45,462 nt of DNA, filler included, from Catajapyx aquilonaris (GCA_000934665.2; 2 parts of 2 records of this genome joined end to end with filler, not necessarily neighbours in it), one strand, 5' to 3'. Shown: positions 23,519 through 45,074, counted from the first letter of the whole stretch. Numbers and translations are program-made. The notes: generated by a model not told the origin, from the letters alone.

Positions 23519-23761
23519 GTGGGGAAGCGCGGTTTTCATTTTCACGGATTTCACAGAGAGGTCGTGAAAATGAAAACCGCGCTTCCCCACGGGCTTTCTG
23601 GGGTGGGGAAGCTCGGTGTTCATTTTGACGGATTTCACACCTTAGAGGTCGTGAAAATGAAACCCGAGTTTCCTCACCCCAGAAAGTCCGTGGGGAAGCG
23701 CGGTTTTCATTTTGACGGATTTCACAGAGAGGCCGTGAAAATGAAAACCGCGCTTTCCCAC
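23519..23761. repeat. Array of three ~72-75-bp hairpin units with mutually inverted 12-bp spacers
   Basis: Units 23519-23590, 23603-23677, 23690-23761; spacers gggctttctggg and cccagaaagtcc. Confidence 0.92.
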
Positions 23762-25075
23762 TCCATAGAGCCCGTGAAAATGCATATCATGAGCATATAT
23801 ACAGTAATATTAATTTCTGAGAAACTACACAGCTACCTTTGCAGACAGGACCAGTCAACAGACAATCCCAGTATTGCAAGCAGGCTTTTCTCAAATAAAC
23901 AAGAAATACCAGACTTTACATTGACTCATAATATTATCTCACCAGCAGTACTTTGAAGACCAAATGAGGCGGAAGTCTGCGGCGCGGCGCGGCGCTAGCC
24001 ACTATACTAAACCATCATTTCGCCCTCGTTCATTGTTATTAATTAGTCAACTATTAATAACAATAAAATGCAAGGATAATAGGCCACGAGCATAACCACA
24101 TCACGCACTTGAACATTTGATTTCATGAAAATTCGACTAAAATAAAAAGTAGTGCTGGTATACGTGAATCATTTGAAGATACCATAAAGTCCCATCAAAT
24201 ACATACGAAACATGTTACCGAGCACACTTTGTTTTTAAGAAATAAATATATACTTAGAAATTAGTTCATTTTCTTGCAGAGATCCCTATGGGAGGCGCAC
24301 CCGTCCGCCTTATTTATTTGATATCTTGGAGCCTAATATGAATACAACAATGAAATTGACATAACTGAAAGATTACTGCAAAAATGTTCTGAAATTTTAA
24401 GTTTATTAGGCTCATGTCAAGGGTCACGAACTTTGACCTGCTAACATGACACGTAATTTAAATCGGATATTTTTTGAGTGTTATCACCGGATTACGCGTA
24501 CCGTTTAGAATTGAAAGCCCCATTTCTCGGGTATGTGGGCTGCACAGTTACTGAAATAATCGGGTTATTGGAAGCAACAAAATGGAAGAGTCCTCATTTT
24601 TGACCTCGTCCTTGCTCGTGAACTATGGACACCAGCGGGTTTATACAATATGTCGCTTAGACCTTGACAAAATAAAGTCTGATTAGCCTAGCACTGCGCT
24701 ATTTCTGGGACGTGAATACAGACAATCGAGAAGTCACGTCAGGGCAGCCGATCGACCGATGCTATGGATATGAAGGGGAGAAGAGCAATAGGATCAACCT
24801 TTTGAAATGTACTAATATTTTTTTCCTTGTACATTGAGTAGTAAGGAAGTTAAATAAAAAACCATAAGATTCCCCATGAGAGGAATACTATTTTTTCCTG
24901 TTGCAATATTGTTCAAATATAGCCATCAAGCTGTCAGTCGGAGGCGTCTTGCCAGTCGCTTGTTGCTGTCATAATTTATTTAGTTTACATAGATATGAAA
25001 AGATAATAATGGCTGGGATGCTGATGCGCTTGCACGAAACTAACTGCTGTCGCAGATGATGACATGCAAATCAGC

Positions 25076-25474: not shown

Positions 25475-25855
25475 GCAAATCAGCAATATATACACAGCAT
25501 GCCAAAATTCACTTACTGGATGGCATGCCATCCAATAACTCAGTAAGTGCAGTGCAGTGCAAGTGCAGGACATTTTATTACTGCAGATATTGTTCCCTTC
25601 AAAGAGTCGTATATAATAATAATAATAATTACCCATGCAGTGGTGTGTTACGTATACATGCCAAGCATACCGTCAGAAAAAAGGCAAATAATCTTGCATA
25701 TCACGGTTTATATTGGCAGTACATCTATCGTGACATCATAAACACTATTGTTTCGAAACTGCATGCGTAGATGCTAGTGCATTTAAAAGTGTCTATTGTT
25801 CCTGCAACCCCTCAGAGAAGTGCAGTTCTGCAAACAGTCGTGCAGAATCTCCGTA

Positions 25856-25967
25856 ATGCTGGGTTGGAGGAGATGCCGGCTCTGCTCCAGAACCAGGACA
25901 TCATGCATTTTGCTGGCTATCTTCTGCCTTGCTGCTGTCTATGCTGCACCACCGCGTGCAAAAGGAA
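25856..25967 (+). CDS. Gene A exon 1: signal peptide MLGWRRCRLCSRTRTSCILLAIFCLAAVYA|APPRAKG
   Basis: ATG at 25856, basic n-region, hydrophobic core ILLAIFCLAAV, VYA-A cleavage-like site, consensus donor GTAAGT at 25968. Confidence 0.85.
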
Positions 25968-28900
25968 GTAAGTCGTCATTTCACAGACTGGTTTCCATGT
26001 CTTGTGTTGGTTGTGCTGACACTATCATGAGGAACTTTGGTGACGTTTTTTTTTACAGAAGCCGATGAGAAGGAAAAAGTCGGATCAGGGGAAGGTGTGG
26101 AGCTGAAACCGAGATCGTGGCAGACAAGTGTTAGTGTTAAAAGTACGTCTTTGCTTTTGTGTTGTTGCATATTTTACAAATTGTGTTCTGATCTAACCGC
26201 ATTATGTTTCAACAGAACAGAAAGTCTCGACAGGCGGAGGTGAGCATGTTGAGTTTTTGAGTAACTGTCACTTGATTTTAACGTACTTTTGGTTTTTACA
26301 GGTGGCTTCAGCAGCAGCGCTATGAGTATGAGTGGAGGCGGTAAGTAATAACAGTTTATTAACCTATGTTGGAGATATTTATTGCGTTAGTGTAAGAATA
26401 CAGTCAAATAATTAATCAAATGTAAAAATGACCTGCGGGTATAAGCAATAGGGCCGATAACTACTACCCCCCAATTGGCAAGGGATGATGAATGATAGAC
26501 ACATCTGGCTGAACGTTATTTTGATATACATTTAAGGCGAGAAGTCCAAGAGTCGAGAGGTTTATTCGTATTTAAAATTAAAATACGAACTTTGTTAGGC
26601 GGCCAAGCAGCATTACCGAATCTGATTACTTTCGCTTAATTATGTAATAAACCACATTGACGTAAGTTAAAATGTACCAACGCGCAATTTTTTATTGTAC
26701 AGTGGAAACGATACTAAAAAGACCACAATCGTTTCAAGGCTGAATAATATGAATGTCAAGATGTCTGTGTTTAATCTACGGCTTTAAAACATTATTAAAC
26801 TTTGAAAGGGATTGTTCATCATTTTAAATACCTCAGACTATCCCAGATCACAATAGGCATAGATTACTACGTCTATTGCCACGAGCACTGTGAAACAAAG
26901 GGCATCTAGAAATTCTCTTATTGTATAATTATCATGCTTTCGCTATACCGGTACCTGTAGTTTCTGCATGGTATGAGCCTACGGTACAGATGCAGATATT
27001 TTCTGTTTAAAATAAATTAAGTTTACCGGTACTTTTATAAAGAAACTTGACACTGCACTTTTTTCATTTAACCCTTAATTATTCTAATCATACGCTTAAT
27101 TCTTAATCTTAATTTTAATCATTTCTTAATCTTCATTTTAATCATTTCTTAATCAACTATACTACATGGACTCTTTTTGCTAAATTTTTAAATGCCACTT
27201 TATTCATAACTTGCTTTTCCATATCAATTTCCATACTTAATTGTTGTTACTGATGACACATAGAGTACGTTCCTAAAAGCACCGGTGCGCCGTCTGCTGC
27301 GCCCGGCTGGTTCCCCCTCCGGTACGTCAGGGCTCGGATTAAAGAAACGTTTTTTTGGTACGCACCGGTAACAACAATGGCGACCAACAGTAGAATTCGA
27401 ACATGGAATTAGTCACCCTCTTTCGAAACATCTGCATAGCTCCTCTATAGTGACGATGATGGTGTGGAGAGGGGAAGTGGGAAGAGTTCCAATTCTGGGT
27501 TCCAATCGAACAAAATCTAGGGAATGAGACGGGTTGAAACTAGTTCTATTCACACTCTGGACAACTTCAAGAGAATCAAAACAGAATATTGTTGTTCAGG
27601 CGGCCATCTTAGCATCTTTGACAGAGACCAGGGTCGACCGGACGAACCATATCCCCTAACCCGGTCGTATCGGTCAGCTACCGGTGCTTTTAGGAACGTC
27701 CTCATATTGAACTTGCTTATACTGTAATATCTGGTTGAGTTGTTGCTAAGAAATGACTATCATGATTTTTCCAGGGGGCGCATCAATGGGACATGGGATG
27801 GATATGATGGAACTTATGGGAGGTTTGTTGGTTTGGTGGTTATAGGTATCAGTTTATTATTCATTAATTTTTTATCGCCAGTCACGAATCTAGTGAAATA
27901 GAGACGATGACATCGATTGAAGATTTGAAATGCAGGACGATCACAGCCATATTCTGGTCGAAATTGAGTTGTATATTGGTTAATACAGTTCTCGAAGGTG
28001 GTGTAGTGGTTAGTGCCACAACCGTCCATATCATTTAAAAAAAAGTCAGATCACCTATTACAAGCACGCTTTTTGCAGCATTTAAATTTTTTTGAAATTA
28101 TAAGCTACCTGTAAATATCAAATTAAATAGATTATGCAGGACATTCCAAGTATGCGGGTCGCTTTAGTTATAAGATTTTTTTTTTTTGCTCGAAGTATTT
28201 TTTTTGGTAGCTAGTTGCGCCCCGATCCACGTGCCCTATTATAGAGCAACTGCTTTATTCGACCACTCCTGGGCACATGGATCGGGGCGCAACAAGTATC
28301 ACAAAAATAACTACTTCGCGCGATATTAGTGATAACTAAAAGCGACCTTGATACATGGAACACCCTGTATCTAGTGTACGTACCTTGTCATCGCTGGCTA
28401 CCTCGTCATGAGAAAATGCCGTGAAGAATGTATTAATGCATGCATGTATGTGTTACCGGCAATGTGTGAAATACCTAGGCATTATACAGGGTGTTCCAGA
28501 TTCATGGGTCACTTTTTGATAACTGATATCGCCCGATAGCAGTTATCAAAAAGTGACCCACGAATCTGGAACACCCTGTATATAATGTCTGACGTATGAA
28601 ATGAGCGCCAGCGTCTGTGGCGGGATTGGAGAATCCACGACTTTTGGCTGCTGCGCAACCGGCTGCGGGTAATTCGCTCCCGAGTCATTTCGCTGCCATC
28701 AAATTGGCTGCTGCTTTGCCAAGCTCGAATAGCATGCAACCGTCACCCCGTCCCAACACAGCACAGCAGCGAACTGACTCGGCGGCGAAAAGAATATGTA
28801 AAGGGAGCGAATTTTCCGGGAGCGAATTTTCCGGGATCGAAACTGTTGGAAGCTCAGCCTATCATTCGAAATGACAAATCGATCGAACGTGACAGAACAA

Positions 28901-31900
28901 TTAATGATAAATCAACGCGAGAATGGCGATTGGCAAAGTCACAATAACGTTCATTGGCCTGCGGCACCACAAGACTGACTGTAATGTTGCAGATGCCTAC
29001 AATAAGTGCCCAGCTCTCTGACGCTCGCAATTAACTAAAATCATCACGCAATGCGACGTACCGTGCCTGGCAGGGCCACAAGACGGACAGTACTAGTGCA
29101 GTCACCCCAAAGCCATACAGATGACACCAACATAACGCACACGCACAACACAAAGTGACCGCAGCAAACTGACTCGTCCAAGAATTGAAGAAACCATAAT
29201 AATTCATAATTATCTTTGCTACTGGTTTCAACCTTTGCCATTATTAAACACCAAGTCGTATAATTGAAGTAGTCTACTCTGAATTGCATTCTACAAAAAC
29301 CTTATGGCCATAACCATTTTATCCAGCAACTGTGACCGCAGCCAATTGAATCAGCAACCAAAAGGCACCAGCGAATTGACCAGCAGCCAATATTGTCACG
29401 CTTCGCCACCCCTGAAAAAGGACCCGATTTATTACTGGTTATTTCATACATTACCGGTAACATAATTATGTACCAAGTGTGCATGTGTCTTGGTTATAGT
29501 TGAAGCATATTGAATCTGCATATACTATAATACTACTATACTTTAGGGCAAGGGGGTAATCACTCGACTGAAAAGTGTACACTGGAGTACCAAATTCAAG
29601 GAGTACCACGGAGTAATAAAGAGTGAGGTGCCTGAGGAGTACCAGGGAGTACCACTCCCAGGTGTACACCGGAGTACCGAAGTGATTACCCCCTTGCTTT
29701 AGGGTCATTCAGATGAAAACGAGCCACGGTCATATAGCGCCGGATGGGTACCACATCTTATATACAAAACGAAGGCCGGTTTAGTATTATGACACACTGA
29801 CAGTTGATCATTCGATAACTCGACACAGTCGCAGTGACGCAGTGTGCTTTTGTTCAGCGCNNNNNNNNNNNNNNNCCCCCCCCCCCCCCCGGTCAAAAAG
29901 ACCGTCCAATCCGATATTGAGAAATTTCCTATGGCTCGTTTTAATCTGAATGAACTGTATACCGGTACATCTGGTTGAGTTGTTGCTAAGAATATTGACT
30001 ATCATGATTTTTCTAGGGGGCGGAGGAATGGGACATGGGATGGATATAAGCGTCATGATGGGAGGTTTGTTTGTTTGGTGGTTTGTTACCCTATCATTTC
30101 ATTATTCATTAATATTATTTTTATGACCAGTTACGAATCTAGTGAAATAGAGACGATAACATCGGTAGAATAATTGAAATTCGCGATCACAGTCACATTC
30201 TGGTCGAAATTGTATATATTGGTTAATACAGTTATCGAAGGTGGTGTAGTGGTTAGTACCACAACCTTTCACCTCTGGTGTCCCTAATTCAATCCCACAT
30301 TTTTTTATTAATCCGGTCTACTACAAGTATATTATACGCACGCTTTTTGCAGCATTTTAAAACTGTTTTAAATTTTAATATGAAAACCTACCTTTAAGTA
30401 TCAAATTACATAGATTATACAGAATGTTTCAAGTCTGCGGGTATAGCTTTAGTTACATAGGAAATTTCGCTCGAAGCTGTTATTTTTTTGTAGCTTGTTG
30501 CACCCTGCTCCACAGCAACTGCTATATTCAACTGGGGCGCAAGAAACTACACAAAAATAAACTACTTCTGGAGATATTATCGATAACGAAAAACGACCCT
30601 GATACTTGAAACACCCTGTATCCAATGTTTACGTACAGTACCTGGTCATCGCTGGCTTCTCTATCATCATACAGTACATACATACACACATACATACGTC
30701 ATACATTATAACATACCACATACATCATACAGATATTATAGTATGGGCATGTTCAGAGAGAGAGAGTATTCACCATCTGTAACCTAGCCACATACATACA
30801 TACGTATGTATGCTTGTATGTATGTGTCTTGGTTATACTCTCTCTGAACATGCCCATATTATAATACCCGGTTAAGTTGTTGCTCAGTATTGACTATCAT
30901 GAATATTTTCCAGGAGGCGGTTCTTCAGGACTTGAGATGGGCGAATTTATGTCAGGATCTTCTGGTTAGTTATCCTTTAATTTTTCATTGATTTTTATAG
31001 TCAGTTATAAATCTAGTGAAATAGAAACAATGGCATCAATATTGAAAATTTAAAATTCAGAACGATCACAGTCACATTATGACAGTTAGGTATTAGTCAA
31101 AGTATATCTTTGGTATTAGTTAACACAGTCCTCGAAGGTTGTGTAGTGGTTAGAGCCACAACCTTCCACCTCTGAGGTCCCTCATTAAATTCCCAGTTGG
31201 GATGGAGGATTTTCTCACATAAAGTTGGTTCTCTCATTGTTCACGTTGGTTTTGTCGGTTCCTACCGCATTCAAAATCCATCAACTTTGAGTATTAACCT
31301 CCTGAGACCCCTAGTACACCTTTCAATCACCTTTGTTTTTTTTTACGCGTTTGAGTTAGTCAGAAGGTGATGGAAAAAACAAAGGTACAGTATACTGTAC
31401 CAGGGGTCTCAGGAGGTTAATGAATCAATTCAGGAATTAAGTGAGGATTTCTTAAGAGGTCAGTTGAGTTTTCTGATTCAAAAATCACATCCCTTTAGAA
31501 AAGTTTTTGACAGATATTTATCCCGTAAGGAATAAATGCAATCTTCAAACCTGCAACCCTTCTATAGAGAAACTGTCAAATGTGACTCTGAGCTTTTTGA
31601 ATTTTAATTCTTCAGTTCTAATTTCGTAATGATCTTTGTTTAGGAGGAATGGGGATGGGGATGGCGCACTCTGGTGGTGCAAAAATGTCGTCGTCGCGTA
31701 GTATGACCATGAGTAGTTCTTCATCGAGCATGGGAGGAGGAGGAGGTTCATTTGCTAGCATGGGAGGAGGAGGAGGAGGTTCATTTTCTAGCATGACCAA
31801 ATCCAGTTCCGGCATGAGTGGTGGTGGTGGATTTAGTAGCGGCATGGTAGGAGGAGGAGGAAGTTCATCATTTTCTAGCAGCATGACCAAATCCAGTTCT

Positions 31901-34900
31901 GGAATGAGTGGTGGTGGTGGTGGATTTAGTAGCGAGATGGCAGGATTTGGTGGTGGTATGGGTGGTATGCACGGATCATCTGACACCTCATTAACTATTA
32001 GCATGGCCGGAGGAAGTAAGAAGATGAAGAAGACAGGTGGTGTTGGGCAGCTGAACTTTGAAATGGGCGGAGCACATGGGGGTTCGTCTGATGCGGTGAT
32101 GGGCATCAACGTTGGAGGAATGCGTCAAACTACTAAAAAGAAGGGGAAAATGACCATTACCGCCCACGAAATGAATATAGATGGTATGGATTCTGACTCT
32201 GGTGAGTCTGTCGAACACGAAACTACTTTCAATATAAACCTCAAGGGGAAAGGAAAGGGACAACCTGGAAAAAATAGAGGAGGCAAAGGAAAGCTCGATG
32301 ATGATGACGATGATGATGACACCGCCGAAAATGATGGGCCAGGGAGAAATAAAAAGAAGCCAAAGTTCGGTGGTAGCGGGAAGCTTACTGTTGATATAAA
32401 CTTAATGACAGTCAAAGGGAAAGGGAAAGGCGGAGGCGGAATCATAATGGGAGATGATGACGATGATGACGACGGCCCGAGTCCAAAAGGACGGGGACCA
32501 AAGGGCAAGAAGCCGAAGGGGGGAGACTATGACGATGATGACGATGGCCCGAGTCCAAAAGGACGGGGACCAAAGGGCAAGAAGCCGAAGGGGGGAGACT
32601 ATGACGATGATGACGACGATGGCCCGAGTCCAAAAGGACGGGGACCAAAGGGCAAGAAGCCGAAGGGGGGAGACTATGACGATGATGACGACGATGGCCC
32701 AGATCCAAAAGGACGGGCACCAAAGGGAAAGAAGCCGAAGGGTCCTCGAGGTGGCCCTGGAAATATTAATATTGAGCTTAACTTGGGAGGGGGAGGAGGA
32801 GGAGATGACGACGACGATGATGATGATGTTCCAAGTGGACGGGGACCTAAGGGCAAGAAGCCGAAAGGACCAAAAGGTGGCCGTGGGCAGCCTGTCGACG
32901 ATGACGATGATGGTGACGATGGCCCATATCCAAGTGGACCGGGACCTAAGGGCAAGAAGCCAAAAGGACCAAAAGGTGGCCGTGGGCAGCCTGTCGACGA
33001 TGACGATGATGGTGACGATGGCCCATATCCAAGTGGACCGGGACCTAAGGGCAAGAAGCCAAAAGGACCAAGAGGTGGCAAAGGGAAACTCGCTCCTGAT
33101 TTGGACGATGATGACGAACCGGATGGAGGAGACATAGGTATAACAGTGAACCTTAAGACCAAAGGTAAGAAACCTAAGGGTAAAGGCGCTAGACCAGACG
33201 ACGACGACGACGACGTTGACGACGACGACGACGATGAGCCTAACAACAGAGGAAAAGGCCGTCCTCGTCCCAAAGGGAAAAAACGTAAGTAACCAATGCT
33301 GTAGGCCTACGTTGAATATACAATAGCCTAATATTTATTATTTTAAGCTATAATGCTCATAATAAGTAATATATGATTATACTGTGACTATAAATTTTCA
33401 AAATTAAAATTAATTTATTCTTTCATAAAAAAAGTTTCACCGATATCCTTGCTCTGTACATAATAATCATCTGTTCTTTCTACTTCCCTCCCCCTTTATA
33501 CCGCCTTCTTTCTATTACTGTTATGGATATGTAATTCTAATTTTGTAAACTGTAGCGGCTGGCCCAAGTGACGACGACGACGGGTCTGACGAGGAGGATT
33601 CAGAAGGTAAGAATGAAATGATACCAAGTGATTTTTTGGTCTGAATTAACATATTATATTATTTCACCATAACACGACATAAACAGAAGCCAGGAGGATC
33701 TTGATAACTCTAAACAGTAAGTAGGATACACAACGTGGCAGTTATCTAGATAAAATAACGCCATATTTTTTGTTTTGTTTTTTGTTGCAGAAAGTGGAGA
33801 CGAATGCTTCACTACTCAGTGCATGCATCCGTCGGATCCAAGCAAATGCAGGAAAATGGACGTTCCAGGCGAATGTTGTCCCACTTGGCATTGCGATAGT
33901 ATGTTTTCAGTGAAAAAGTATGTAGATATTCCACACTAAATGCTTGTTACTTGACAGAGCCCAAGAAAGGAAGCAAAGAGGATAAGTGTTCAAACATCAA
34001 ATGCGTTGATCCGCCTAAGAGCTTCAGCTGTGAGTTAGAGCCCGCAGAAGAAGGAGAATGCTGCCCTACTTTTGACTGCCAATGTAAAGTATATCTCATT
34101 CACTTAAAAAAAATGTTCAGCATGCAATATATAATGACTAATGAGGTACTTTCTCAGTAGTAGTAGTAAAGTAGTAGTAAGTTAGTCCAACATATAGCCT
34201 AAATATTGCAGTTAATTGAGTAGAGGTCTGTATAAAATTTTTAATAATGTTTTAACTCTCTGATTAGAGCTACTATACTGTATAAATGTTAAATTAGGAT
34301 TTTTCTACGTGATCAAATTGTACCGAATGTCTCGTACTTTCTAATATTAGAAAGTACGAGACATTCGGTACAATTTGATCACGTAGAAAAATCCGAATTT
34401 AACATTTATACAGTATAGTAGCTCTAATCAGAGAGTTAAAACATTATTAAAAATAATTATTAAAAATAATGGAACACAAGTAATTGAATTTATTGATGAC
34501 ATATTATGGAATTCAGCGGTCTTATGCTCCATAGATCGGTCAACGTAAGAACGCAACCGAGTGTGCATCGCCGTGGCGCACATGAATCACAAGTGATCTG
34601 TATGGCCATGCCAGTGTCAGAAATAAGTGTAACCTACAACAGATCATATCGTGCTTATGCACAGATCACTTCTCATTCCAGAATTGCATCTTCTGCGCCA
34701 CACTCCGTTGCGTACTTAAGTTGACCGATCTACACTACGCTCATATTCATGATTTTTCTATGGCATGCTACATGCAGGAACCGAAATATTGGCACGGTAA
34801 AACCCATTATTACCCTCAATGCACGGATGGCATGGTGACATAGTTGTTATCGTTACTGTCTTTCCCCCGCTTTCGATCAAGCGTGCGTTATAATGTGCCT

Positions 34901-35860
34901 CCGAAGCTAAGGTTTAGAGAGATTGATTTAAATTTAAATTTATTCTGTGTTTGTTTTGGCACCGAATGAAGCTTGGAATCTTCTTTCACAGCTCTGTCCT
35001 TATCAGTCACAGTGACAGACGAAGACACCTGCGACGTTAACGATTGCGTTGAGCCACCTCTGAACATGGATTGCGTGGCCAAGCAAGTGGAAGGCAAATG
35101 CTGTCCCGCCTGGGCCTGCAAGAGTACTGTCATGGCCGCAGCAATGACCCAAACGGCAGGAATGACGGGAATGGCGGGAATGGGAATGGGTATGGGTATG
35201 GCAGGGGGAGGTTGGGCTGTCCAGACCAGATATGGTAGAAGGCGTGGGTACCAAGGTGGGTACGCCACCACCTCTACTACTTATACTACTGGTCGTCGCA
35301 CCGGTGGTCTATTCGCCCCATTAGTCCGAGGGGCCACTGGCATAATTGCGGCAGCAGCAAACACTATAGGAATGTCAGGTAACATGAACTATCATACGCC
35401 TGGATCTTCGGTTGGCATTATGGTGCCTCCAGCCCAGAGCACCAGAATGAAGGCCTCTATGACTCGCACCATCACTGGTGGAGGAGGTGGAGGTATGGCG
35501 GCAACACACGTACGAGGTGGAGGTATGGCCTTTAGCGGAAGTGGACTAGGATTCTCCGGTAGCGGTGGCGGTAGCGGATTAGGATTCGCCAGTGGCGGTG
35601 GCAGTAGCGGATTTTCATCAAGCTCGACAAAAGTAATTACCTCCTCTGGAATGGCAGGTGGTAGCGCCATGGGTCTTGGAATGGCAGGTGGTAGCAGCAT
35701 GGGTCATGCAATGGCAGGTGGTAGCGGCATGGGTCTTGGAATGGTAGGTGGAATAGGAGGTGCATCTGGAATGAGCGCATCCTACTCTTCTGGTTACGGC
35801 TCTGCTGGAGGCTTCGCTCAGAGTACCTCCTACAAAGCAACTCGCGTATCCGCCGGCTAA
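25856..35860 (+). CDS. Gene A (whole model): 12-exon secreted low-complexity structural protein, ~1050 aa; Gly/Met/Ser-rich, Asp/Lys block repeats, three VWC-like Cys modules
   Basis: Manual splice model: join(25856..25967,26059..26094,26216..26239,26302..26340,27775..27822,30017..30064,30914..30964,31644..33284,33556..33606,33791..33898,33958..34083,34992..35860) = 3153 nt, one open frame ending TAA. All 11 introns are GT-AG and phase 1; all 10 internal exons are multiples of 3. Confidence 0.85.
26059..26094 (+). CDS. Gene A exon 2 (36 nt; KADEKEKVGSGE)
   Basis: Acceptor ttttttttacAG, donor AG|GTGTGG (weaker), phase 1-1. A NAGNAG alternative acceptor 3 nt downstream is possible. Confidence 0.7.
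26216..26239 (+). CDS. Gene A exon 3 (24 nt; EQKVSTGG)
   Basis: Acceptor tgtttcaacAG, donor AG|GTGAGC, phase 1-1. Confidence 0.75.
26302..26340 (+). CDS. Gene A exon 4 (39 nt; GGFSSSAMSMSGG)
   Basis: Acceptor tttttacAG, donor GTAAGT, phase 1-1; composition matches exon 8. Confidence 0.85.
27263..27703. mobile_element. MITE (441 bp), 24-bp TIRs, 3-bp ATA TSD
   Basis: gagtacgttcctaaaagcaccggt / accggtgcttttaggaacgtcctc (23/24), flanked by ata on both sides. Confidence 0.88.
27775..27822 (+). CDS. Gene A exon 5 (48 nt; GGASMGHGMDMMELMG)
   Basis: Acceptor tttttccAG, donor AG|GTTTGT, phase 1-1; paralogous to exon 6. Confidence 0.8.
28137..28367. mobile_element. Decayed MITE of the cagggtgttcca family
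   Basis: Right end ggaacaccctg|ta; internal arms gttgcgccccgatcca / tggatcggggcgcaac. Confidence 0.7.
28487..28578. mobile_element. 92-bp near-palindromic MITE, TA TSD (Tc1/mariner-like)
   Basis: TA|cagggtgttccagattc...gaatctggaacaccctg|TA; internally deleted relative to the 18298 copy. Confidence 0.88.
29549..29696. mobile_element. hAT-type MITE (148 bp)
   Basis: Perfect 16-bp TIR caagggggtaatcact, 8-bp TSD ctttaggg (29541-48, 29697-704), internal ggagtacc repeats. Confidence 0.88.
29861..29875. other. Assembly gap (15 N) in gene A intron 5
   Basis: N run next to a poly-C tract. Confidence 0.95.
30017..30064 (+). CDS. Gene A exon 6 (48 nt; GGGGMGHGMDISVMMG)
   Basis: Acceptor tttttctAG, donor AG|GTTTGT, phase 1-1; duplicate of exon 5 with the frame kept open. 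Confidence 0.8.
30420..30618. mobile_element. Duplicate of the 28137 MITE carried in exon unit B
   Basis: Colinear with 28137-28367, at the same position within the duplicated unit. Confidence 0.7.
30734..30866. mobile_element. Small inverted-repeat element / MITE
   Basis: tattatagtatgggcatgttcagagagag / ctctctctgaacatgcccatattataata arms around (TACA)n/(TGTA)n. Confidence 0.7.
30914..30964 (+). CDS. Gene A exon 7 (51 nt; GGGSSGLEMGEFMSGSS)
   Basis: Acceptor ttttccAG, donor GTTAGT, phase 1-1; flanks homologous to those of exons 5 and 6. Confidence 0.8.
31135..31285 (+). mobile_element. Decayed SINE related to the 18552 element (truncated heads also at ~27996 and ~30238)
   Basis: gtgtagtggttag...ccacctctgaggtccc...ggatggaggat...tcaaaatccatca colinear with the 18552 SINE. 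Confidence 0.7.
31298..31416. mobile_element. piggyBac-like MITE (119 bp)
   Basis: TTAA on both sides; TIR cctcctgagacccctRgtaca (20/21). Confidence 0.85.
31644..33284 (+). CDS. Gene A exon 8 (1641 nt): Gly/Met/Ser-rich region then poly-Asp / KGKKPKG block repeats
   Basis: 547-codon ORF; acceptor tctttgtttAG at 31642-43; consensus donor GTAAGT at 33285, just before the ORF's stop, so that stop is intronic. Confidence 0.93.
32474..32745 (+). repeat. Coding tandem repeat, 72-75 nt unit (GPSPKGRGPKGKKPKGGDYD5-6), ~3.7 copies
   Basis: Unit starts at 32474, 32546, 32621, 32696. Confidence 0.95.
32831..33080 (+). repeat. Coding tandem repeat, 99 nt unit (PSGxGPKGKKPKGPKGGRGQPVDDDDDGDDGPY), ~2.5 copies
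   Basis: Unit starts at 32831, 32930, 33029. Confidence 0.95.
33556..33606 (+). CDS. Gene A exon 9 (51 nt; PAGPSDDDDGSDEEDSE)
   Basis: Acceptor ctgtAG, donor AG|GTAAGA, phase 1-1; acidic composition continues exon 8. Confidence 0.85.
33791..33898 (+). CDS. Gene A exon 10: Cys module 1 (ESGDECFTTQCMHPSDPSKCRKMDVPGECCPTWHCD)
   Basis: Long T-rich acceptor ending gcAG, donor GTATGT, phase 1-1; C-x4-C-x8-C-x8-CCP-x3-C. Confidence 0.9.
33958..34083 (+). CDS. Gene A exon 11: Cys module 2 (KPKKGSKEDKCSNIKCVDPPKSFSCELEPAEEGECCPTFDCQ)
   Basis: Follows a 59-nt intron; acceptor ttgacAG, donor GTAAAG, phase 1-1; nearly the same Cys spacing as exon 10 (x9 instead of x8 before CC). Confidence 0.88.
34237..34454. 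repeat. 218-bp spacerless palindrome in gene A intron 11
   Basis: 109-bp arms centred on ctaat|attag (34345/34346); one mismatch seen (34296/34395). Confidence 0.95.
34532..34732. mobile_element. MITE (~200 bp) with TA-bounded TIRs
   Basis: tagatcggtcaacgtaagaacgcaaccgagtgtg / cacactccgttgcgtacttaagttgaccgatcta. Confidence 0.82.
34992..35860 (+). CDS. Gene A exon 12 (terminal): Cys module 3 plus Gly/Met/Ser/Ala-rich tail
   Basis: Acceptor tcttctttcacAG in phase 1 with the 295-aa ORF; CDVNDCVEPPLNMDCVAKQVEGKCCPAWAC; stop TAA 35858-35860. Confidence 0.9.
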
Positions 35861-35989
35861 TTGAGATTGATTACAGAATTTTTGGCCCAAGATCGGTCTG
35901 TTTGAGTGTAAAAATAATTGTTTTTGCAAAGTGTGTGAGAGAAATAATGTATAGGAGATGCATTTGTAAGTAATCCATCAAGGAATGGC

Positions 35990-35995
35990 AATAAA
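35990..35995 (+). promoter_or_regulatory. Candidate polyadenylation signal of gene A
   Basis: AATAAA ~130 nt after the stop codon. Confidence 0.4.
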
Positions 35996-37903
35996 TTATG
36001 CTACAGGAGAGTATGCATTTAGTATGTGGGTGTATTCCTCGTTTTACCAGAAGCGTTTACAGAAAATATGTTACATACTTCTTATACGTACAGCATGTCA
36101 AGAAATTACAAAAAAAAAAATTGCACCGAAAACTTTCACAAGACACCATTACAAACTCGTAATTATATTTTTCAAATTTTATTTGCAACTCTATTGGTTA
36201 ATGAGTAAAGGCACAACATATTGGTTCCGTTCCTTGACCGTTTTGTTTCAGTTTTTATACCATGGATCATATTAGGGAGTAGCTACAACTGCTCTAAGCA
36301 GGTGATAGGTTTATCCCTTATATTTTTTCCCCCAGGACGACGAGGATGTTGAAGAATTTGCATGCATCCACATTAAACAAACATTCAAAAGTGTTTCAGA
36401 ATAAAAATGGTTCCGAAAGGCTGTTTTTGTTTTACTCAAGAGCCAGCGAATTGGAACACGTATGAAAACCTCAAGACCGCGAGGCAAGTTACGCACTTTG
36501 TGACTAAAAAATCCTCTCTATTTGGCCACGGCAGGTAAATCAGTCAATCACAAGAAGCTATTATTTTGATTCCAGCCGCGCTCTTGGTTGATTTGGCACA
36601 TACGGCCATGGAGTTTTGAACAGAAATAACAGGATATTATTAGAGTACAGTACAATGCTCTCACATAGCCCACTGACTCAGGAAGGCTCAGGAAGTGAGC
36701 TCTTCGGATAATATTATGCTGAATCCAATGAAAACGCTTTATTGTCTTAGGCCTTATTGCTGTACTAGCAGTTTAGCTTGTCCTACTCAGGCTTGCTAGT
36801 CAACGAAAGAATGGTGCTAGTAAAATTATTTCAAATGGTGCAAGTACGTTTTCTACAACGAAATCCACTCTTACATGCATTACAGTACGAATATATTATG
36901 ATGATGATATGAACCGATGTCTTGAAAATACTCGTATAAAAGTAAATCAATTTATTAGACGTTAACGTAATGCTTAATGCCATGTAAGAATAAATAAGGA
37001 GTTATAAACTGATGTCCAAAGTTGACAACGATCTGATTTTTTATATATAAAGCATTGCTGTCCAAGGAATGCAGGGGTGTCCCAACAAGCACGGTAGCAC
37101 AGGTGATGTGACCTACCTCTTCCTTTACCCTGAGCTTAACCTCACAAGTGGTGACTTTAGACATTCATTAATTTTATTTGTCCTTGCTGATCAATGGTAA
37201 CTGTGGAAACTGGTACAAAAGGGGATAAATTATGGAAACTACGTGTACTTTCTTGGGATTACCTGAATATTTCAGAATTGCAGTGCATGAGAAATATTTT
37301 AAATTTAAAAATGTCGACTTTTAATTTTTTAATTTGTTTATTTTTGTTTCTATTTTTACGAATATTTAATTCAATTTTAATTTAGAATTATTCATTATTA
37401 GAACTAATCGCTATTTTCTCCGTGCTTTGAATCGGTATTACTGAAAGTAATATATTGCATTGGTATACTATATTGTGTAATATTGTCATTTGTCATCCTG
37501 AAAATACTACTGTTTATAGGCATCTGCATCCTGTAACAGGGCTGGTAATTTTAAGTTTTCCGTCGTTTCTGTTGGAGGGGGGGGGGATGCCATGATTACC
37601 ATCATCATTATTATAAACTGCAGTAGTTTGGCTGTCAGGTAAACTGTGAAACACCAGTGTTGGAGGCATGTAAATATTATTATGACAGGTCATTGAGGAT
37701 TACCGAAATATATGACTTGATCGAGGAACTCAATTCCAAGAATGTTAATAAACATAGCCACATTCCCCCACAATTTCCTCGTGTCCGCTGCTGATCAAGG
37801 GGTCATTGCTTCCAGGCACATCATGTTAGCTGGAGAACTGTGACTAACTTCCGTTACGTATTTTCCTCATTCACCACTCCCATAAAATCAGGACTTAAAA
37901 TGC

Positions 37904-37910
37904 TATAAAA
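37904..37910 (+). promoter_or_regulatory. Candidate TATA box for gene B
   Basis: TATAAAA ~600 nt upstream of the signal-peptide exon, which has an acceptor-like site before it; position only. Confidence 0.3.
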
Positions 37911-38498
37911 TGCACTCGATGAAACTCTTGTGGATAAGCCTGGAGACGGACTGGGGCAGAAGTTCAAACGAGTTCAGTGAAAAACTGATGATGTCTTTGC
38001 CCCAAAGCAAATGTAGGCCGACACTACTGTACAGTACAATTTTGGAAGCCTAATCTTGACACATAGTACCGTACACTAGCGTATTTTCTCGTTACGTCAG
38101 AGACGTTACCAGCAGTGTTACATTCAACTCGTTCGAGCACCTGCCCAAATCCGTATCCATCATTATGCCTGTGACTGTACTGTACAATCATGTTCAAGTA
38201 CGTCACGTGCTGCTTTCAAAGGGGACAAATTAATATCATGCACGGGGAGATTGTTCGCATTGAATATGTCGCAAGAATATTGTTTCGGGTCGTCTGTGAA
38301 ACGTACAGATAAAGACAGAAGAGAGAAAGGCGTAAAGGTCGTCCATATAACCATTGTGATCCTCACCTACGTGCAAATTTTTACGACTTTTAAAGCCATT
38401 GTTTCTGTAGTCATTGTGGGCATGACACTTTACTATTGTTTTTTTTTGTATGTCCTTCCAAGTACAGGCAACGTGTCTGCTTCCCAGCCAACTCTGGA

Positions 38499-38595
38499 AT
38501 GGGAACGAAAAGGAAGCTCTTCTACGTGACCTGGATATCGTGCATCTTCCTGACCCTTTGTCGTTCTCTCCATGGTGGTAAAAAGGAAGACGAGG
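38499..38595 (+). CDS. Gene B signal-peptide exon (MGTKRKLFYVTWISCIFLTLCRSLHGGKKEDE)
   Basis: ATG in ggaATGg context, basic n-region plus hydrophobic core, donor G|GTAATT in phase 1. DNA similar to gene A signal-peptide core (18/23 nt). An upstream acceptor-like site at 38466-67 suggests a 5' UTR exon. Confidence 0.7.
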
Positions 38596-41500
38596 GTAAT
38601 TTCAGTTATTCTCAAATTTTATAACCTATAAAATCTGGGATAATGTTATGCAAGGTAACAATATAAGCATTAAAATTATCGCAGGTGGCCTGCTCTGTAG
38701 GGTTATAAATTTTTATTTGCTCCTGCAAAAGCTATTTTATATTGTGTAAACAGATCTGTTATTTTTATGCCTCCATTAAATTTAATGCATACATATCTGC
38801 TTTTTAGTAATACCTTGCATAACAACATCCAGTCCGTAGCGTGTAAAATTGCAGTGATTTCATTACCTATACTTATTATGGAGTTGGCATTTTGGACAAT
38901 CAGAAGATTTAAGGCAAATTCTTCTAGGCCTACTAATGAGTGTGTTCCGACATGTAATGATGGAGTTAGGTCACTGCAGGCGAAGAAGTTATGTTAGTTA
39001 TAGTTATCCGCATGCTCAAGTATACCTCCAGTACACGGGATGTTTCGTAATAATACGAACTTCTAAGGTCCTATACGGACTAGATGATAACTTATGAGAA
39101 CCTCTCAGAACCCTTGTTACCGAGCAAACGGGCTGCAAATATTGTGCTGGTCACATTAGAAGTCCCTGAATGTTTTTTTTTCGTCGCCGGCGGGCCAATT
39201 CAAACATCAGCCTATGGAGAGTGCTTATAGTGTTCTTTCCATTGTTGCCACTGTTTACAAAGAACGAGTGGCGCGGACGACCCAACGACGGGTCTCTGCC
39301 TGCTTGCACAGTGGCAGTGATACGCAGGAAAAAAACGGTAAAATATTTATGTTAGAAGCAAGCCACTTTGGGAAAATGTTCCCTGGTGGACTCACAGAAA
39401 TGTTTTCGTCCAAGTACGCGAAATTCCATCCGGCATAGGAGAGGGGTGGACACCCCTTAATTAAAATCAGGGGTGTGCTAATAATTGAAAGTGCGTCAAC
39501 TGACGTATTCTTTCGGTTTTGTGTCTTTTCCGCTTAATTCGATACCTCTATGACGAATGGAGACCATGCCCCGTACGTCAGACACCGCGTCATTCTTGGT
39601 AATTTGTCCCCAAAGACGTCATATTTTAAAATTGCCTCCCCATATCATATACGAGTGCGTATCATTCGCGTCATATTCGCGCCAGGAAGGTAGAGGTACA
39701 GGACTAACATGACACGTACAGGAGATGTGCACAATAATAGGAGCACCTGCAAAAACCGGTTGAAACTTCGCGTCTATTTTATTCGAAAACTGGAAAGGTT
39801 ACAAAGATGACTTTTATATATTTTTGAAGCTCCGTCGTTGTACATTTGTCAATGAATGCAGATGACGCAAAAATCACGAGAGGGGGGAGGGGGAGAAACA
39901 AAAGAAGAACTACACCCTCAGACCCCATTTTTGACCAAAGTGTTACAGCCTTGTGATTTGACAGTTTCATTTCAGGGACGTGTCATGTTAGTCCTGTACC
40001 TCTTCCTGGCACGAATATGACGCGAATGACACGTACTCGTATCTGGGGAGGCCATTTTGAATTTTCGCGGGCTTGGACGAAAACCTTTCTTTGAGTCCAG
40101 CAGGTAACATTTTCCCAAAGTGGCTTGCTTCTAACATAATTATTTTCCCGGTTTTCCCTGCGTATCCCTGCCACTGTGCAAGCAGGCAGAGACCCGTCGT
40201 TGGTCGTCCGCGTCACTCGCTCTTTGTAAACAGTGGCAAACAAAGGAAAGAACACTAAGCACTCTCCATATGCTGATGTTTGAATTGGCCCGTCGCCTGG
40301 GGTTGCCAGGTAACGGGCGCCCGCCGACGAAAAAAAAACATTCAGGGACTGCTAATGTGACCAGCACTGTACACTGTACAGAGTATAAAATATCCTGGAA
40401 GCTATGTATCCCTCCAAGCGACCTTGCCATTTTCAGTTATTTTTAGTATTACTGTGTAATTGTAGGTGTAGCATCCGAGATGACGTAATAATTTCCTTTA
40501 TTCAGGCCATTTTTTTTAAAAAAAAGGACAGGTTTTTGTACCGTGCCAGATTATGTAGCCTAGTCTAAGCCTATGTCGGGCGCTCTTGCCGCCAAGTCTA
40601 TTCTTCCGTCTCTTTGTCACTCCCTAGTGTATTGCCTGCCAAAAATCTTCTTCAGGTGGCGAACCAAGTGTAGGTTCCTCTTTGCTATGGAAGCTGTAAG
40701 AAACTTTGAGCATCCTTCATTATAGTCCAGGTCATTGTCTAGCCTTTCATCAAGTGACTCGCAGATATTTCACCATCTCTAGTATTTTCTGGCCAAGAGA
40801 CGAAAGTGCAGGACACAGGCTAATAAAAATTACAGTAGATATGCTAGAAAAATCATTCTCTGGCATCGGGGAAGCAATAGCTAAAGATGTGCAATACCAT
40901 CCTACATAGATGTTTGGGAACATTTTAAAACATAATTTACTGCAAAGACGAAAGTGTAATTTTGCATAATAATATTGTACTACATTTCCATGCAGTATTA
41001 TCTCTGAGATCTGCTCTGTGGAGGGAATACACAACGTCAAAGTTCTCAGAGTCAGTTTTTGTAACTTTGTGACAGGAAAGAAATGATCATTGTTAAGGAC
41101 ACATATTACAGGAGTAAGTTAGTATCGCAGAAATGGCGACATGATTATGGTGGCCATGGGAATAGCATGAAACGGTTAACTGTTAAGCGTCTGAAACAAA
41201 AATCACCATGTCACAATGGTCCACAATTAGGCAGAGTAATGCCATTGTAAATATAAAGTACTAAAATGCTGAACGAACAAAGTCACATATTTTAGTTAAA
41301 ATTATTGAGCTAGGCATTGTTTAATATATTCCAAGATGATGGTTGAGTCAGTTTTCTGACAGATGAATTCTAATCCATTATATAAATTTTTGAAAAAACA
41401 TATCCCATAAGGGAAACCGCGATATTCAATATTCAAATCATCATAATTATCTCGAAATCAGTCAAATGTGACTGGATATTCTACATAATTTATCAGGTCT

Positions 41501-44500
41501 TCATATGAATTAAAATGACTGCGCAGTTTCAGAGCCAGTAACATATTCTGACCTTCCAACGTGCATCACTTTGAGAAAACAATAGAAGCGTAATCTTTAT
41601 AGCGTAGTATTTTAATAGTACATTGCTCAAACATTGTGAAACACCAGAATTTATTGTTCTCTGTCACAGACAATGTACTGTACGTTAATACATCTTGCAC
41701 TCAATATAGTCCATTAGTATGTTACAACTAAATCTTGAAATTGTTTAAATGGTTAGAATTATTATTATTTTTCAAAATAAAATCCCTTGCTTCTAAATAC
41801 AGTCTGATGTGTCAGACATGTAAGTGTGCTCTACATGCAGGTGGATGATTCAGGCAAATTCTCTTGGGCTCTTGGGAACTCTTGGGCTCCAGATGATTAT
41901 TGCAGATGCATTATTTGTTTTCAGCAGTAACAAAACTGAGGTAATGAACATAAATGAAAGAGTGCATTGTTCTGATTCCAATGTCGCGGATACAGCATTT
42001 CTTTAAATCGCAATTTAAGCTTTAAGGTAGGCTACATGTAAATAATAACATTTACATTTTAAATTAAATTGGCAAGGTCATGCGGAGAAGCACATAGCTG
42101 CCATGATATTCAACACTTGGTGATCACAGCTCGGTGACGAAATGTCAGAGACAAAGGGACACCTTCACATAAAATTATTGTGTCCACGTGGGGCCATTAT
42201 TACGCTAGGAATTATGTGTGTTTAAAAAACGTAAGATGTAGGGTAGGAACAGTGGTCCACGGGGCACAATATTGTCCTTTTCATTTAAAAAAATATAAGA
42301 AACCGTAATAACGTCTTCATCTGGTACCTCGTCGTGAATCAGGTCACTATTGTGCATCTTGTTAACATGACAGCCACCTATGAGATGCCTGCGATCCTGT
42401 TGCGTCAGGGGAAAATTTGAAGGGTAGTGAAGTTACTTCTAACCCACAGTTTAAATGCCATGTCAGGCGTAGATGCTGATGTAAAAATATTGTTGAATAG
42501 TACCATCCTTTGTCCATAAATGCTGGAAATTTGGAAAGCGCCATTAGCAATGGAAGCGATGATTCATGACATCATGTCAGTTGCTGCCCTCTGACCCTCT
42601 GTCCATGGACCATTGTGCACCTTTTTGTGAACGACTGTGGCCCCTTTTGCCTCTGTACAGCACTGATGACTGTGCCGCGGTCTCCCCTACAGCATGGATA
42701 ATACGATCTCACCAATTTTCCCAACTTCTTCACCTTCTCATAATTATATATAAGTCTCATTCCATTGTAAATTTTAACTAGTTTATTGATGGACATATGC
42801 TTTTTTTCCACGATAGGAGTTAGAATCTCCATTCATAAAGGTGGAGGAGGATTTCGGGGGACGACTGGTAGCGGCGGAGTCTTAATTGGAGGAGGTGGTG
42901 GAGGAGGCTTACTTGGAGGTGGTGGTGGTGGAGGAGGCTTACTTGGAGGTGGTGGTGGAGGAGGAGGCTTATTTGTAGGTGGTGCTCCTGGACTGCTTCT
43001 GGGTGGTGGAACTGGAGGACATCATGGTGGCAGTTCCGGAGGACATCATGGTGGCAGTTCCGGAGGACATCATGGTAGCAGTTCCGGAGGACATCATGGT
43101 AGCAGTTCCGGAGGACATCATGGTAGCAGTTCCGGAGGACATCATGGTGGCGGTTCCGGAGGACATCGTGGTGGAGGGTCATTTCATGTTGAGGGAGGGC
43201 CCGGATTTCAAGTTGGGGGAGGGCAACGATTTCAAGTTGGTGGCATGTCTGGACATCTAAGTGGTGGAGGTGAAGGAGTTTTTGGTGGACCACCTGGAAA
43301 TATGAGAATTGATATCAAGGGAGCAGAAATGGCAGCAGATAAAGAGGCGGACTCATCTTCAGTGGACATAAATTTCCTAGGCAAATCTTCAGCCAAAGAT
43401 TCAGCCAGACTAGATTTGTCTGGAGGTGACAAAGACAAGAAGTCGGCAACAATTCACATCAACTATGACAATAAGGATTTGGACGATCAAGATTTGGTTT
43501 TGGGCGATGGAAAAAGTACACAAAAATTCAGCATTAATTTCGCGGGCCAAGGAAATAATCCTAGTGGTGCATATGGATTAAGCCTTTTAGGCTCACCAGA
43601 CACCAGTAAATCAAGAGTAATTAACTTGAGTGGCATGACTCCCTCAAGCAATTCACAAGGATCACTTAATTTGGGAATGAACGATGGAAGAAATCCACAA
43701 AAATTCAGCATTAATATCGGAGGCCAAGGAAATAATCCCGCTGGTGCATATGGATTAAGCTTTTCAGGCTCACCAGACGCCAGTAAATCAGGAGGAATTA
43801 TCTTTAGTGGCATGCCTCCTTCAAGCAATTCACAAGGATCACTTAATTTGGGAATGAACGATGGAAGAAGTCCACAAAAATTCAGCATTAATATCGGAGG
43901 CCCAGGAAATAATCCCGCTGGTGCATATGGATTAAGCTTTTCAGGCTCACCAGACGCCAGTAAATCAGGAGGAATTAACTTTAGTGGCATGCCTCCTTCA
44001 AGCAATTCACAAGGATCACTTAATTTGGGAATGAACGATGGAAGAAGTCCACAAAAATTCAGCTTTAATATCACAGGCCAAGGAAATAATCCCGCTGGTG
44101 CATATGGATTAAGCTTTTCAGGCTCACCAGACAGCAGTAAACCAGGAGGAATTAACTTTAGTGGCATGACTCCCTCAAGCAATTCACAAGGATCACTTAA
44201 TATGGGAATGAACGATGGAAGAAATCCACAAAAAATCAGCATTAATATCACAGGCCAAGGAAACAATCCCGCTGGTGCATATGGATTAAGCTTTTCAGGC
44301 TCACCAGACCCCAGTACACCAGGAGAAATTAACTTGAGTGGCAATACTCCCTCAAGCAGTCCTCATCAAGGGTCAATGAGTTTCAGATTTGAAGATATAC
44401 CAGGCAGTGATGATAATCCTGGTGGCGCATATAGCTTCAGCTCTTCAGGCTCCCAAGACCCCAGTACACCAGGAGAAATTAACTTGAGTGGCAATACTCC

Positions 44501-45074
44501 CTCAAGCAGTCCTCATCAAGGGTCAATGAGTTTCAGTTTTGGAGATATACCAGGCAGTGATGATAATCCCGGTGGCGCATATAGCTTAAGCTCTTCAGGC
44601 TCCCAAGAACCCAGTACATCAGGAGGAATTAACCTGAGTGGCAATACTCCCTCAAGCAGTCCTCATCAAGGGTCAATGAGTTTCAGTTTTGGAGATATAC
44701 CAGGCAGTGATGATAAGCCCAGTGGCTCATATAGCTTAAGCTCTTCAGGCTCCCAAGAACCCAGTGAACCAGGAGGAATTAACCTCAGCGGCAATACTCC
44801 CTCAAGCAGTTCTGAAGGGTCATTGAGTTTCAAATTTGGAGATATACCAGGCAGTGATAAAAAGCCCTCAAAATTCGATGTCAATTATGCGAATAACGGA
44901 TATAATCCTGGAAGTTCATATAGCATGCAACAAGTTCCTGGAAGTGGAGGTGACTTTTCCATGGACATTTCACGTCAGAATCCCAGCCATGGTGGAAGCT
45001 TGTCAATCAGTGGGCAACAAATCCCTGGAGCTCAACTCAGCTATCAACAGGAAAGTTACGGAGGAGGTCAGTAG
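38499..45074 (+). CDS. Gene B (whole model): secreted Gly/Ser-rich repeat protein with GGHH His-rich tract, ~784 aa (extra micro-exons possible)
   Basis: join(38499..38595,42817..45074) = 2355 nt, in frame through a phase-1 GT-AG intron. Confidence 0.7.
39144..40367. mobile_element. ~1.2-kb foldback element (long inverted arms) in gene B intron
   Basis: Arm 39144-39717 (with ~200-bp extra segment) is the reverse complement of 39978-40367; mirrored ORF translations (NDGSLPACTVA) on both strands; no TSD seen. Confidence 0.8.
42817..45074 (+). CDS. Gene B terminal exon (2258 nt): GGGLL tracts, (GGHHGxSS)6, 59-aa and 50-aa tandem repeats
   Basis: 762-codon ORF; acceptor ctttttttccacgatAG at 42815-16 in phase 1; stop TAG 45072-74; repeat units are all multiples of 3. 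Confidence 0.92.
43014..43178 (+). repeat. Coding tandem repeat, 24 nt unit (GGHHG[G/S][S/G]S) x6 plus GGHRGGG
   Basis: ggaggacatcatggtRgcRgttcc repeated every 24 nt from 43014. Confidence 0.95.
43506..44310 (+). repeat. Coding tandem repeat, 177 nt (59 aa) unit, ~4.5 copies
   Basis: Unit starts (gatggaa...) at 43506, 43683, 43860, 44037, 44214. Confidence 0.95.
44311..44865 (+). repeat. Coding tandem repeat, 150 nt (50 aa) unit, ~3.7 copies
   Basis: Unit starts (ccagt...) at 44311, 44461, 44611, 44761. Confidence 0.95.

Follow-up and report, generated by a model that had tools for sequence, protein, structure and literature searches.

The DNA analysed here (the window) is a stretch of 45,462 nucleotides (nt), filler included, from the Catajapyx aquilonaris genome (GCA_000934665.2). 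It carries two adjacent genes on the plus strand, gene A (25856-35860) and gene B (38499-45074), which a preliminary description had picked out as a tandem pair encoding secreted proteins built of low-complexity blocks. The pair proved to be real, since both gene models are open and gene A is partly seen spliced in the contigs of a public run. The host genome (285.6 Mb) is that of an arthropod: 66 of the 70 candidates scored in it match the arthropod cuticle domain PF00379.

Gene models and transcript evidence

An initial 12-exon model of gene A was open for 1066 amino acids (aa), with GT..AG ends at each intron and all introns in phase 1. The splice evidence came from one public run (X1) in the form of contigs, its library type not being on record. 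Five of the 12 introns of the corrected model are spliced on a single X1 contig with a depth of 14.4, all with GT..AG ends, at joints 33284>33556, 33606>33687, 33716>33791, 33898>33958 and 34083>34992 (the second was listed as 33604>33685; a cut two places further is equally good). These joints add a 30-nt exon (33687-33716) that is absent from the 12-exon model, and the corrected gene A has 13 exons encoding 1076 aa, again with every intron in phase 1. That is, gene A is transcribed and spliced in its 3' part. The seven 5' introns of gene A and the gene B model are sequence predictions. X1 depth was 0-1.5 over gene B and the first exons of gene A and was counted neither way.

Exon 1 of gene A (25856-25967) holds the start codon and a predicted signal peptide, and it resembles exon 1 of gene B as well as a first exon on another contig of the same genome, C1987. 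Short predicted exons follow: exon 2 (26059-26142, 84 nt, phase 1-1), the 24-nt micro-exon 3 (26216-26239), exon 4 (26302-26340, 39 nt, Gly/Ser/Met), exon 5 (27775-27822, 48 nt, Gly/Met), exon 6 (30017-30064, 48 nt, Gly/Met) and exon 7 (30914-30964, 51 nt, Gly/Ser/Met). Exons 5 to 7 are duplicates of each other that include flanking intron; this tandem duplication covers 27708-28399, 29958-30657 and 30845-31193, with a DNA identity of 68-72%. Exon 8 (31644-33284), the donor of which is seen spliced in the X1 contig, encodes Gly/Ser/Met sequence to about 32011, a linker with strand motifs and, from about 32243, poly-Asp alternating with Lys/Gly/Pro. The acidic exon 9 (33556-33606) has X1 joints on both sides. 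The 30-nt micro-exon 10, for which the contig joints are the sole evidence, codes for a strand-like motif. Exons 11 (33791-33898) and 12 (33958-34083) each encode a putative six-Cys module derived from the VWC domain, and exon 13 (34992-35860) comprises the third module (35021-35122), a basic Gly/Ser/Ala/Thr/Met tail and the stop codon. A hexamer resembling a poly(A) signal is found past the stop at 35990. By eye, the last intron also contains a near-perfect, hairpin-forming inverted repeat at about 34230-34450.

The predicted gene B consists of two exons, is open for 784 aa and has a phase-1 intron. Exon 1 (38499-38595) contains the start codon, a predicted signal peptide and a phase-1 donor. 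Exon 2 (42817-45074, 2.26 kb) starts with a Gly/Leu block (about 42840-43004) and a Gly/Ser/His block (43005-43175), continues with a linker and two repeat arrays, of 59 residues (43506-44264) and 50 residues (44265-44870), with strand motifs about every 15 residues, and ends with a C-terminal tail and the stop. Three micro-exon candidates within the intron were unconvincing and were rejected. Between 39144 and 40367 the intron harbours nested inverted repeats (39144-39423 with 40063-40367, and 39625-39717 with 39978-40061; 84% in both cases), probably a foldback element or one of the miniature inverted-repeat transposable element type.

Secretion signals and block composition

The N-termini of both proteins show a basic start followed by a hydrophobic core (best 11-residue hydropathy 3.21 in A and 2.09 in B), and the signal peptides claimed for the pair are predicted here as well. 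A hydropathy scan revealed no membrane-length hydrophobic stretch beyond the N-terminus in either protein.

Every block named in the preliminary description was found again in the proteins, which have sizes of 74-104 kDa and are nearly all low-complexity. Protein A (23% Gly and 4.9% Thr overall) comprises a Gly/Ser/Met block (34/27/16%), an Asp/Lys/Gly/Pro block and three Cys modules. The charges in the Asp/Lys block are segregated, with a blockiness of 0.56 versus 0.15±0.02 in 300 shuffles (maximum 0.23), and Asp is offset by Lys/Arg (net charge -15 over 376 aa). Protein B combines a Gly/Leu block (64/16%) and a Gly/Ser/His block (49/25/23%) with Ser/Gly/Asn/Pro repeats of 59 residues (177 nt, 4.8 copies) and 50 residues (150 nt, 4.0 copies). 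Its His content is 2.8% overall and 23% in one 57-residue block, which holds six Gly-Gly-His-His motifs.

A probable common signal exon

When the first exons of A and B were compared in frame and without gaps, 32 of 48 nt were identical. The maximum was 28 of 48 among 1,000 local codon shuffles and 24 of 48 when signal-like cuticle-gene segments served as controls (36 comparisons; nine of the 20 loci were usable, some of them partly intronic), and the next best place anywhere in the window, on either strand, reached 26 of 48. On this sequence comparison, the match ties A and B closer together than the preliminary description knew.

A similar first exon was found on C1987, a contig with two giant genes. 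Exon 1 of the second giant gene and the signal exon of gene A gave a protein score of 59 versus 28.7±6.8. In addition, this giant gene contains a Gly/Met/Ala block, and only one other module matches the first module of A better than its own first module does. A third signal exon, 37 of 48 nt of which are identical to exon 1 of that giant gene, lies between the two giant genes and belongs to an apparent small gene without Cys modules (C1987:23131, minus strand). Searches of the host genome with three segments of A and B returned the window copy only, and a search with the gene B repeats returned B's own repeats only. A weak match on C4128 lies out of frame inside a long, apparently hemicentin-like Ig-repeat gene and was rejected as chance; a pattern match on C480 and weak matches on C257, C2977, C2292 and C2391 were rejected since they came without a matching signal exon.

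Judged from these first exons, A and B probably descend from one signal cassette that was also used by the giant genes of C1987, and we infer a family in which the signal cassette is shared and the mature parts vary freely. A conserved signal-coding exon with divergent mature parts, partly made of miniature exons, has been reported for the KQY/KHI families of the pea aphid (PMC7495047). The likeness is one of gene layout only, as the aphid families are small salivary proteins.

Strand patterning

Short strand motifs in which polar and non-polar residues alternate are more frequent than expected by chance in both proteins. With Met excluded, A contains 25 of them (10.6±2.9 by chance), while B contains 65 (20.8±4.1), or 31 versus 12.4±3.0 if each repeat is kept once. 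In B, the motifs are spaced by 12-17 residues in 33 of 39 gaps, with a median of 15; after de-duplication, 12 of 18 gaps still fall into this range compared to a null fraction of 0.29 (p about 0.001). The period within the repeats is 13-17, near 16 but not strict. Ahead of the C1987 modules, the strand motif count was 31 of 55 (21.7±2.9 in shuffles, maximum 31), a weak result given the rough exon ends.

A 16-residue period gives lacewing egg-stalk silk its cross-beta form, and natural cross-beta materials are few, according to passages of PMC5485732. Like these silks (MalXB1/2, ChryC1-3), B is secreted, rich in Ser and Gly and periodic, with a period of about 15 versus 16. In contrast to them, the strands of B alternate large hydrophobic with polar residues, the turns are rich in Pro and Asn, and the period varies between 13 and 17. 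The protein search with B exon 2 gave no sequence match to them.

Cys modules and their VWC ancestry

Each of the three modules of A has six Cys within about 30 residues. Searching with module 3 gave nine matches among 43 candidates, namely itself and eight on C1987, and a pattern scan found 73 modules on that contig, in two runs on one strand, a lower bound for the genome as a whole. In most cases (64 of 74) a module occupies an exon of its own that ends in a phase-1 donor. The two runs correspond to two giant genes (C1987:3500-13150 and 25700-37000) with about 35-38 six-Cys modules each, and the module order is similar near their 3' ends.

With a profile of 76 modules (three from A, 73 from C1987), 15 proteins were detected among 1.84 billion. 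Of ten whose records were checked, nine are named proteins of barnacles or decapods, labelled mostly as kielin/chordin-like, zonadhesin-like or VWFC-containing. Pfam VWC matches 11 of the 15 at E≤0.001 and six of them above cut-off. The crustacean repeats have eight Cys, and our module aligns to their last 28 columns (44-71 of 71). Comparing it with the full crustacean repeats, hhalign gave 97.3% and E 2.4e-11, a comparison that is partly circular because the repeat templates came from the module's own profile search. The alignment scores were 22.8, 14.1 and 21.9 bits versus 4.7±3.3 for shuffles with fixed Cys. Stand-alone six-Cys units occur in six of the 12 proteins examined. A structure model of the 34-residue module had a predicted local distance difference test (pLDDT) score of 86 and two short strands, and two fold searches with it found no match.

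On the basis of these alignments, we read the module of A as a half-VWC, that is the C-terminal half with the pattern Cys-x-Cys-x-Cys-Cys-Pro-x3-Cys, which would already be present in crustaceans. It falls short of a full VWC domain, for which we required about 57-70 aa, 8-10 Cys and a score above the Pfam cut-off. The crustacean set includes proteins of Cherax (XP_053651184.1), Pollicipes (XP_037076876.1), Petrolisthes (KAK4295421.1), Procambarus, Homarus and Amphibalanus. These are chains of eight-Cys repeats, the C-terminal half of which the six-Cys module matches, whereas A has three modules within about 950 low-complexity residues and no full VWC, and B has none. The preliminary description had recognised neither protein: this stands insofar as no full-length named relative emerged, but the Cys modules are recognisable as VWC-derived.

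Comparison with known proteins

Full-length relatives of A or B were not found in any of the searches, each of which was limited in length range or sensitivity. In three protein searches, B exon 2 was run against proteins of 413-1315 aa, A exon 8 against those of 957-2730 aa and A exon 13 against those of 505-2000 aa; each search scored about 8,000 candidates and gave none at E≤0.001, which is weak evidence given these restricted length ranges. Atlas searches had no match for A or B. No Pfam family scored above cut-off in any of the seven pieces of A and B, and the Chitin_bind_4 cuticle family had no match in them; PF08140 matched neither here nor in the controls and is uninformative. The literature searches, chiefly of open-access articles without their supplements, brought up no description of these proteins, and proteome supplements on barnacles or other crustaceans could contain relatives. 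In the remainder of the window, Pfam had no match in any of the 15 other open frames and Rfam had none over the window. This includes 1-25800, where neither Pfam, in the open frames tested, nor Rfam matched; an 84-nt tandem repeat at 23519-23776 adjoins an assembly gap.

The preliminary description had named scallop abductin, shell matrix proteins and the jaw proteins of Nereis and Glycera as analogues. Since the host is an arthropod, these mollusc and annelid proteins are analogies rather than relatives, and the defining features of abductin and the jaw proteins are missing from the pair. The resilin four-residue core has no copy in A or B, and neither has the five-residue repeat core of abductin. 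Abductin is a protein of 116 aa with Gly-Gly-Phe-Gly-Gly-Met-Gly-Gly-Gly-X repeats and about 58% Gly; its Gly/Met composition is like parts of A, which differs in its 23% Gly and its length of 1076 aa. The polychaete jaw proteins Glycera MTP and Nereis NVJP-1 contain 27-40% His over the whole chain (this and the abductin data from parts of PMC9999432), and their Gly/His likeness is limited to the 57-residue block of B.

Within the arthropods, low-complexity blocks alternate with charged or complex blocks in barnacle cement proteins, and the Gly/Ser-rich CP19k and CP43 families share with A and B the repeated alternating blocks and an arthropod secretion. Homology to them was not detectable in the three length-limited protein searches, and Met, His and poly-Asp blocks are not among the features described in the available portion of PMC5099703. 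Drosophila Tenectin, which forms a luminal matrix, combines VWC-like domains with low-complexity regions (PMC3410870, excerpts). Tenectin and gel-forming mucins have the same layout as A, with a signal peptide, no membrane anchor, low-complexity regions and VWC-like Cys domains; their regions are of the Pro/Thr/Ser type, whereas A has Gly/Met and Asp/Lys blocks with little Thr, half domains and no RGD (Arg-Gly-Asp). A and B are members of none of these groups: abductin, jaw proteins, resilin, R&R cuticle proteins, cement proteins or Tenectin.

Discussion

A and B look like silk-, glue- or matrix-type proteins and appear to work like known arthropod block-copolymer secretions. We consider it reasonably probable that they are lineage-specific secreted structural proteins which assemble via strand pairing, charge blocks and VWC-derived modules. 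We infer the mechanism as a whole from the anatomy of the genes and proteins. The two proteins would leave the cell as largely disordered chains that set outside it into a gel, a fibre or a glue, with the short alternating strands pairing into sheets. As the strands of B recur about every 15 residues, its chain could zigzag to form a ribbon of the cross-beta type. In A, the Gly/Met stretches may act as flexible spacers, the blocky Asp/Lys region would be suited to charge-driven condensation or cation binding, and the three disulfide-locked modules might serve as linking points, as said of VWC-like domains in mucins. His, Tyr and Lys would offer metal binding or cross-links: in B, metal might be bound by the His block, and the Tyr residues, which stand at regular distances, might form cross-links.

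Several results weigh against parts of this reading. At the protein level, the similarity between the two signal peptides is not significant (15% of shuffles score as high), a local DNA alignment including 300 nt upstream scored 35 versus a shuffle maximum of 42, and gene A and the C1987 first exon share 23 of 48 nt in ungapped DNA, which is within the control range. The mature proteins have no common sequence (best BLASTP E 0.43), and the gene B junction 38595>42817 is prediction only. A model of three B repeats placed strands at the motifs with a pLDDT of 42, so that the strand placement is only a hint, and B, with 3% Ala, is not as simple a Ser/Gly/Ala sequence as lacewing silk. Matched directly, Pfam VWC (PF00093) hit none of the 76 modules at E≤1, and the sole PDB match of the module, NOV/CCN3, is weak (E 0.62).

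The least secure step is that one material contains both A and B, and we propose it tentatively, as a possibility. As old neighbours, the two could instead now work apart, A as a luminal or surface matrix protein resembling Tenectin or mucins, and B as a structural protein without relation to it, in a different tissue or at a different stage. The Tenectin-type layout of A, the dissimilar mature parts and the lack of common upstream sequence above chance all agree with such a separation, which we nevertheless hold to be rather doubtful, given the in-frame match of the signal exons, the strand patterning common to both proteins and blocks in A that are Gly/Met and Asp/Lys rather than Pro/Thr/Ser. 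Another explanation places A and B in the exoskeleton, as structural cuticle proteins without a chitin-binding domain, the Asp block handling calcium and the His block hardening with metal. Arthropod cuticles do include Gly-rich proteins that lack this domain, and Gly-rich secreted chains with His and Asp blocks in an arthropod host would suit the role. But none of the seven pieces matched a cuticle family, and the Asp block is offset by Lys/Arg, unlike in mineral-matrix proteins of the purely acidic kind; we think a cuticular role quite unlikely. Both explanations overlap with the structural reading that we prefer.

A role in defence (clotting, encapsulation or antimicrobial action), in which the VWC-derived modules recognise or trap microbes, could draw on the link of single-VWC proteins and hemocytin with arthropod immunity (PMC8371367, in part). 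It is very improbable for proteins of this size and low complexity in which no furin-type cleavage site was found, in A or in B, and gene B has no module at all. Gene B might also be a silent or decaying copy, so that only A matters. While its status as a prediction would allow this, the 2.25-kb stop-free exon, the intact signal exon and the phase-compatible intron speak for a sound gene, and we regard decay as scarcely probable.

Returning to the structural reading, in its boldest form A, B and the C1987 giants belong to a single family based on one signal cassette, and this family makes an arthropod gland material not described so far (a silk, a glue, a spermatophore or an egg coat). B would be a ribbon protein of the amphipathic cross-beta kind that evolved independently and whose His block binds metal. 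A and the giants would join the sheets of B via the same strand motif, adding charge blocks and half-VWC linkers. Taken with all its parts, this form is an unlikely one.

If A and B work apart, they would be unremarkable secreted proteins of one lineage, a class that is common among invertebrates. If B forms a cross-beta ribbon, it would represent a new design with amphipathic rather than Ser/Gly/Ala strands. A, if read correctly, would be a case of half-VWC modules put to new use as linkers within a block protein whose charges are segregated, and the common first exon, if it is indeed one, would show a single export cassette seeding very different structural proteins.

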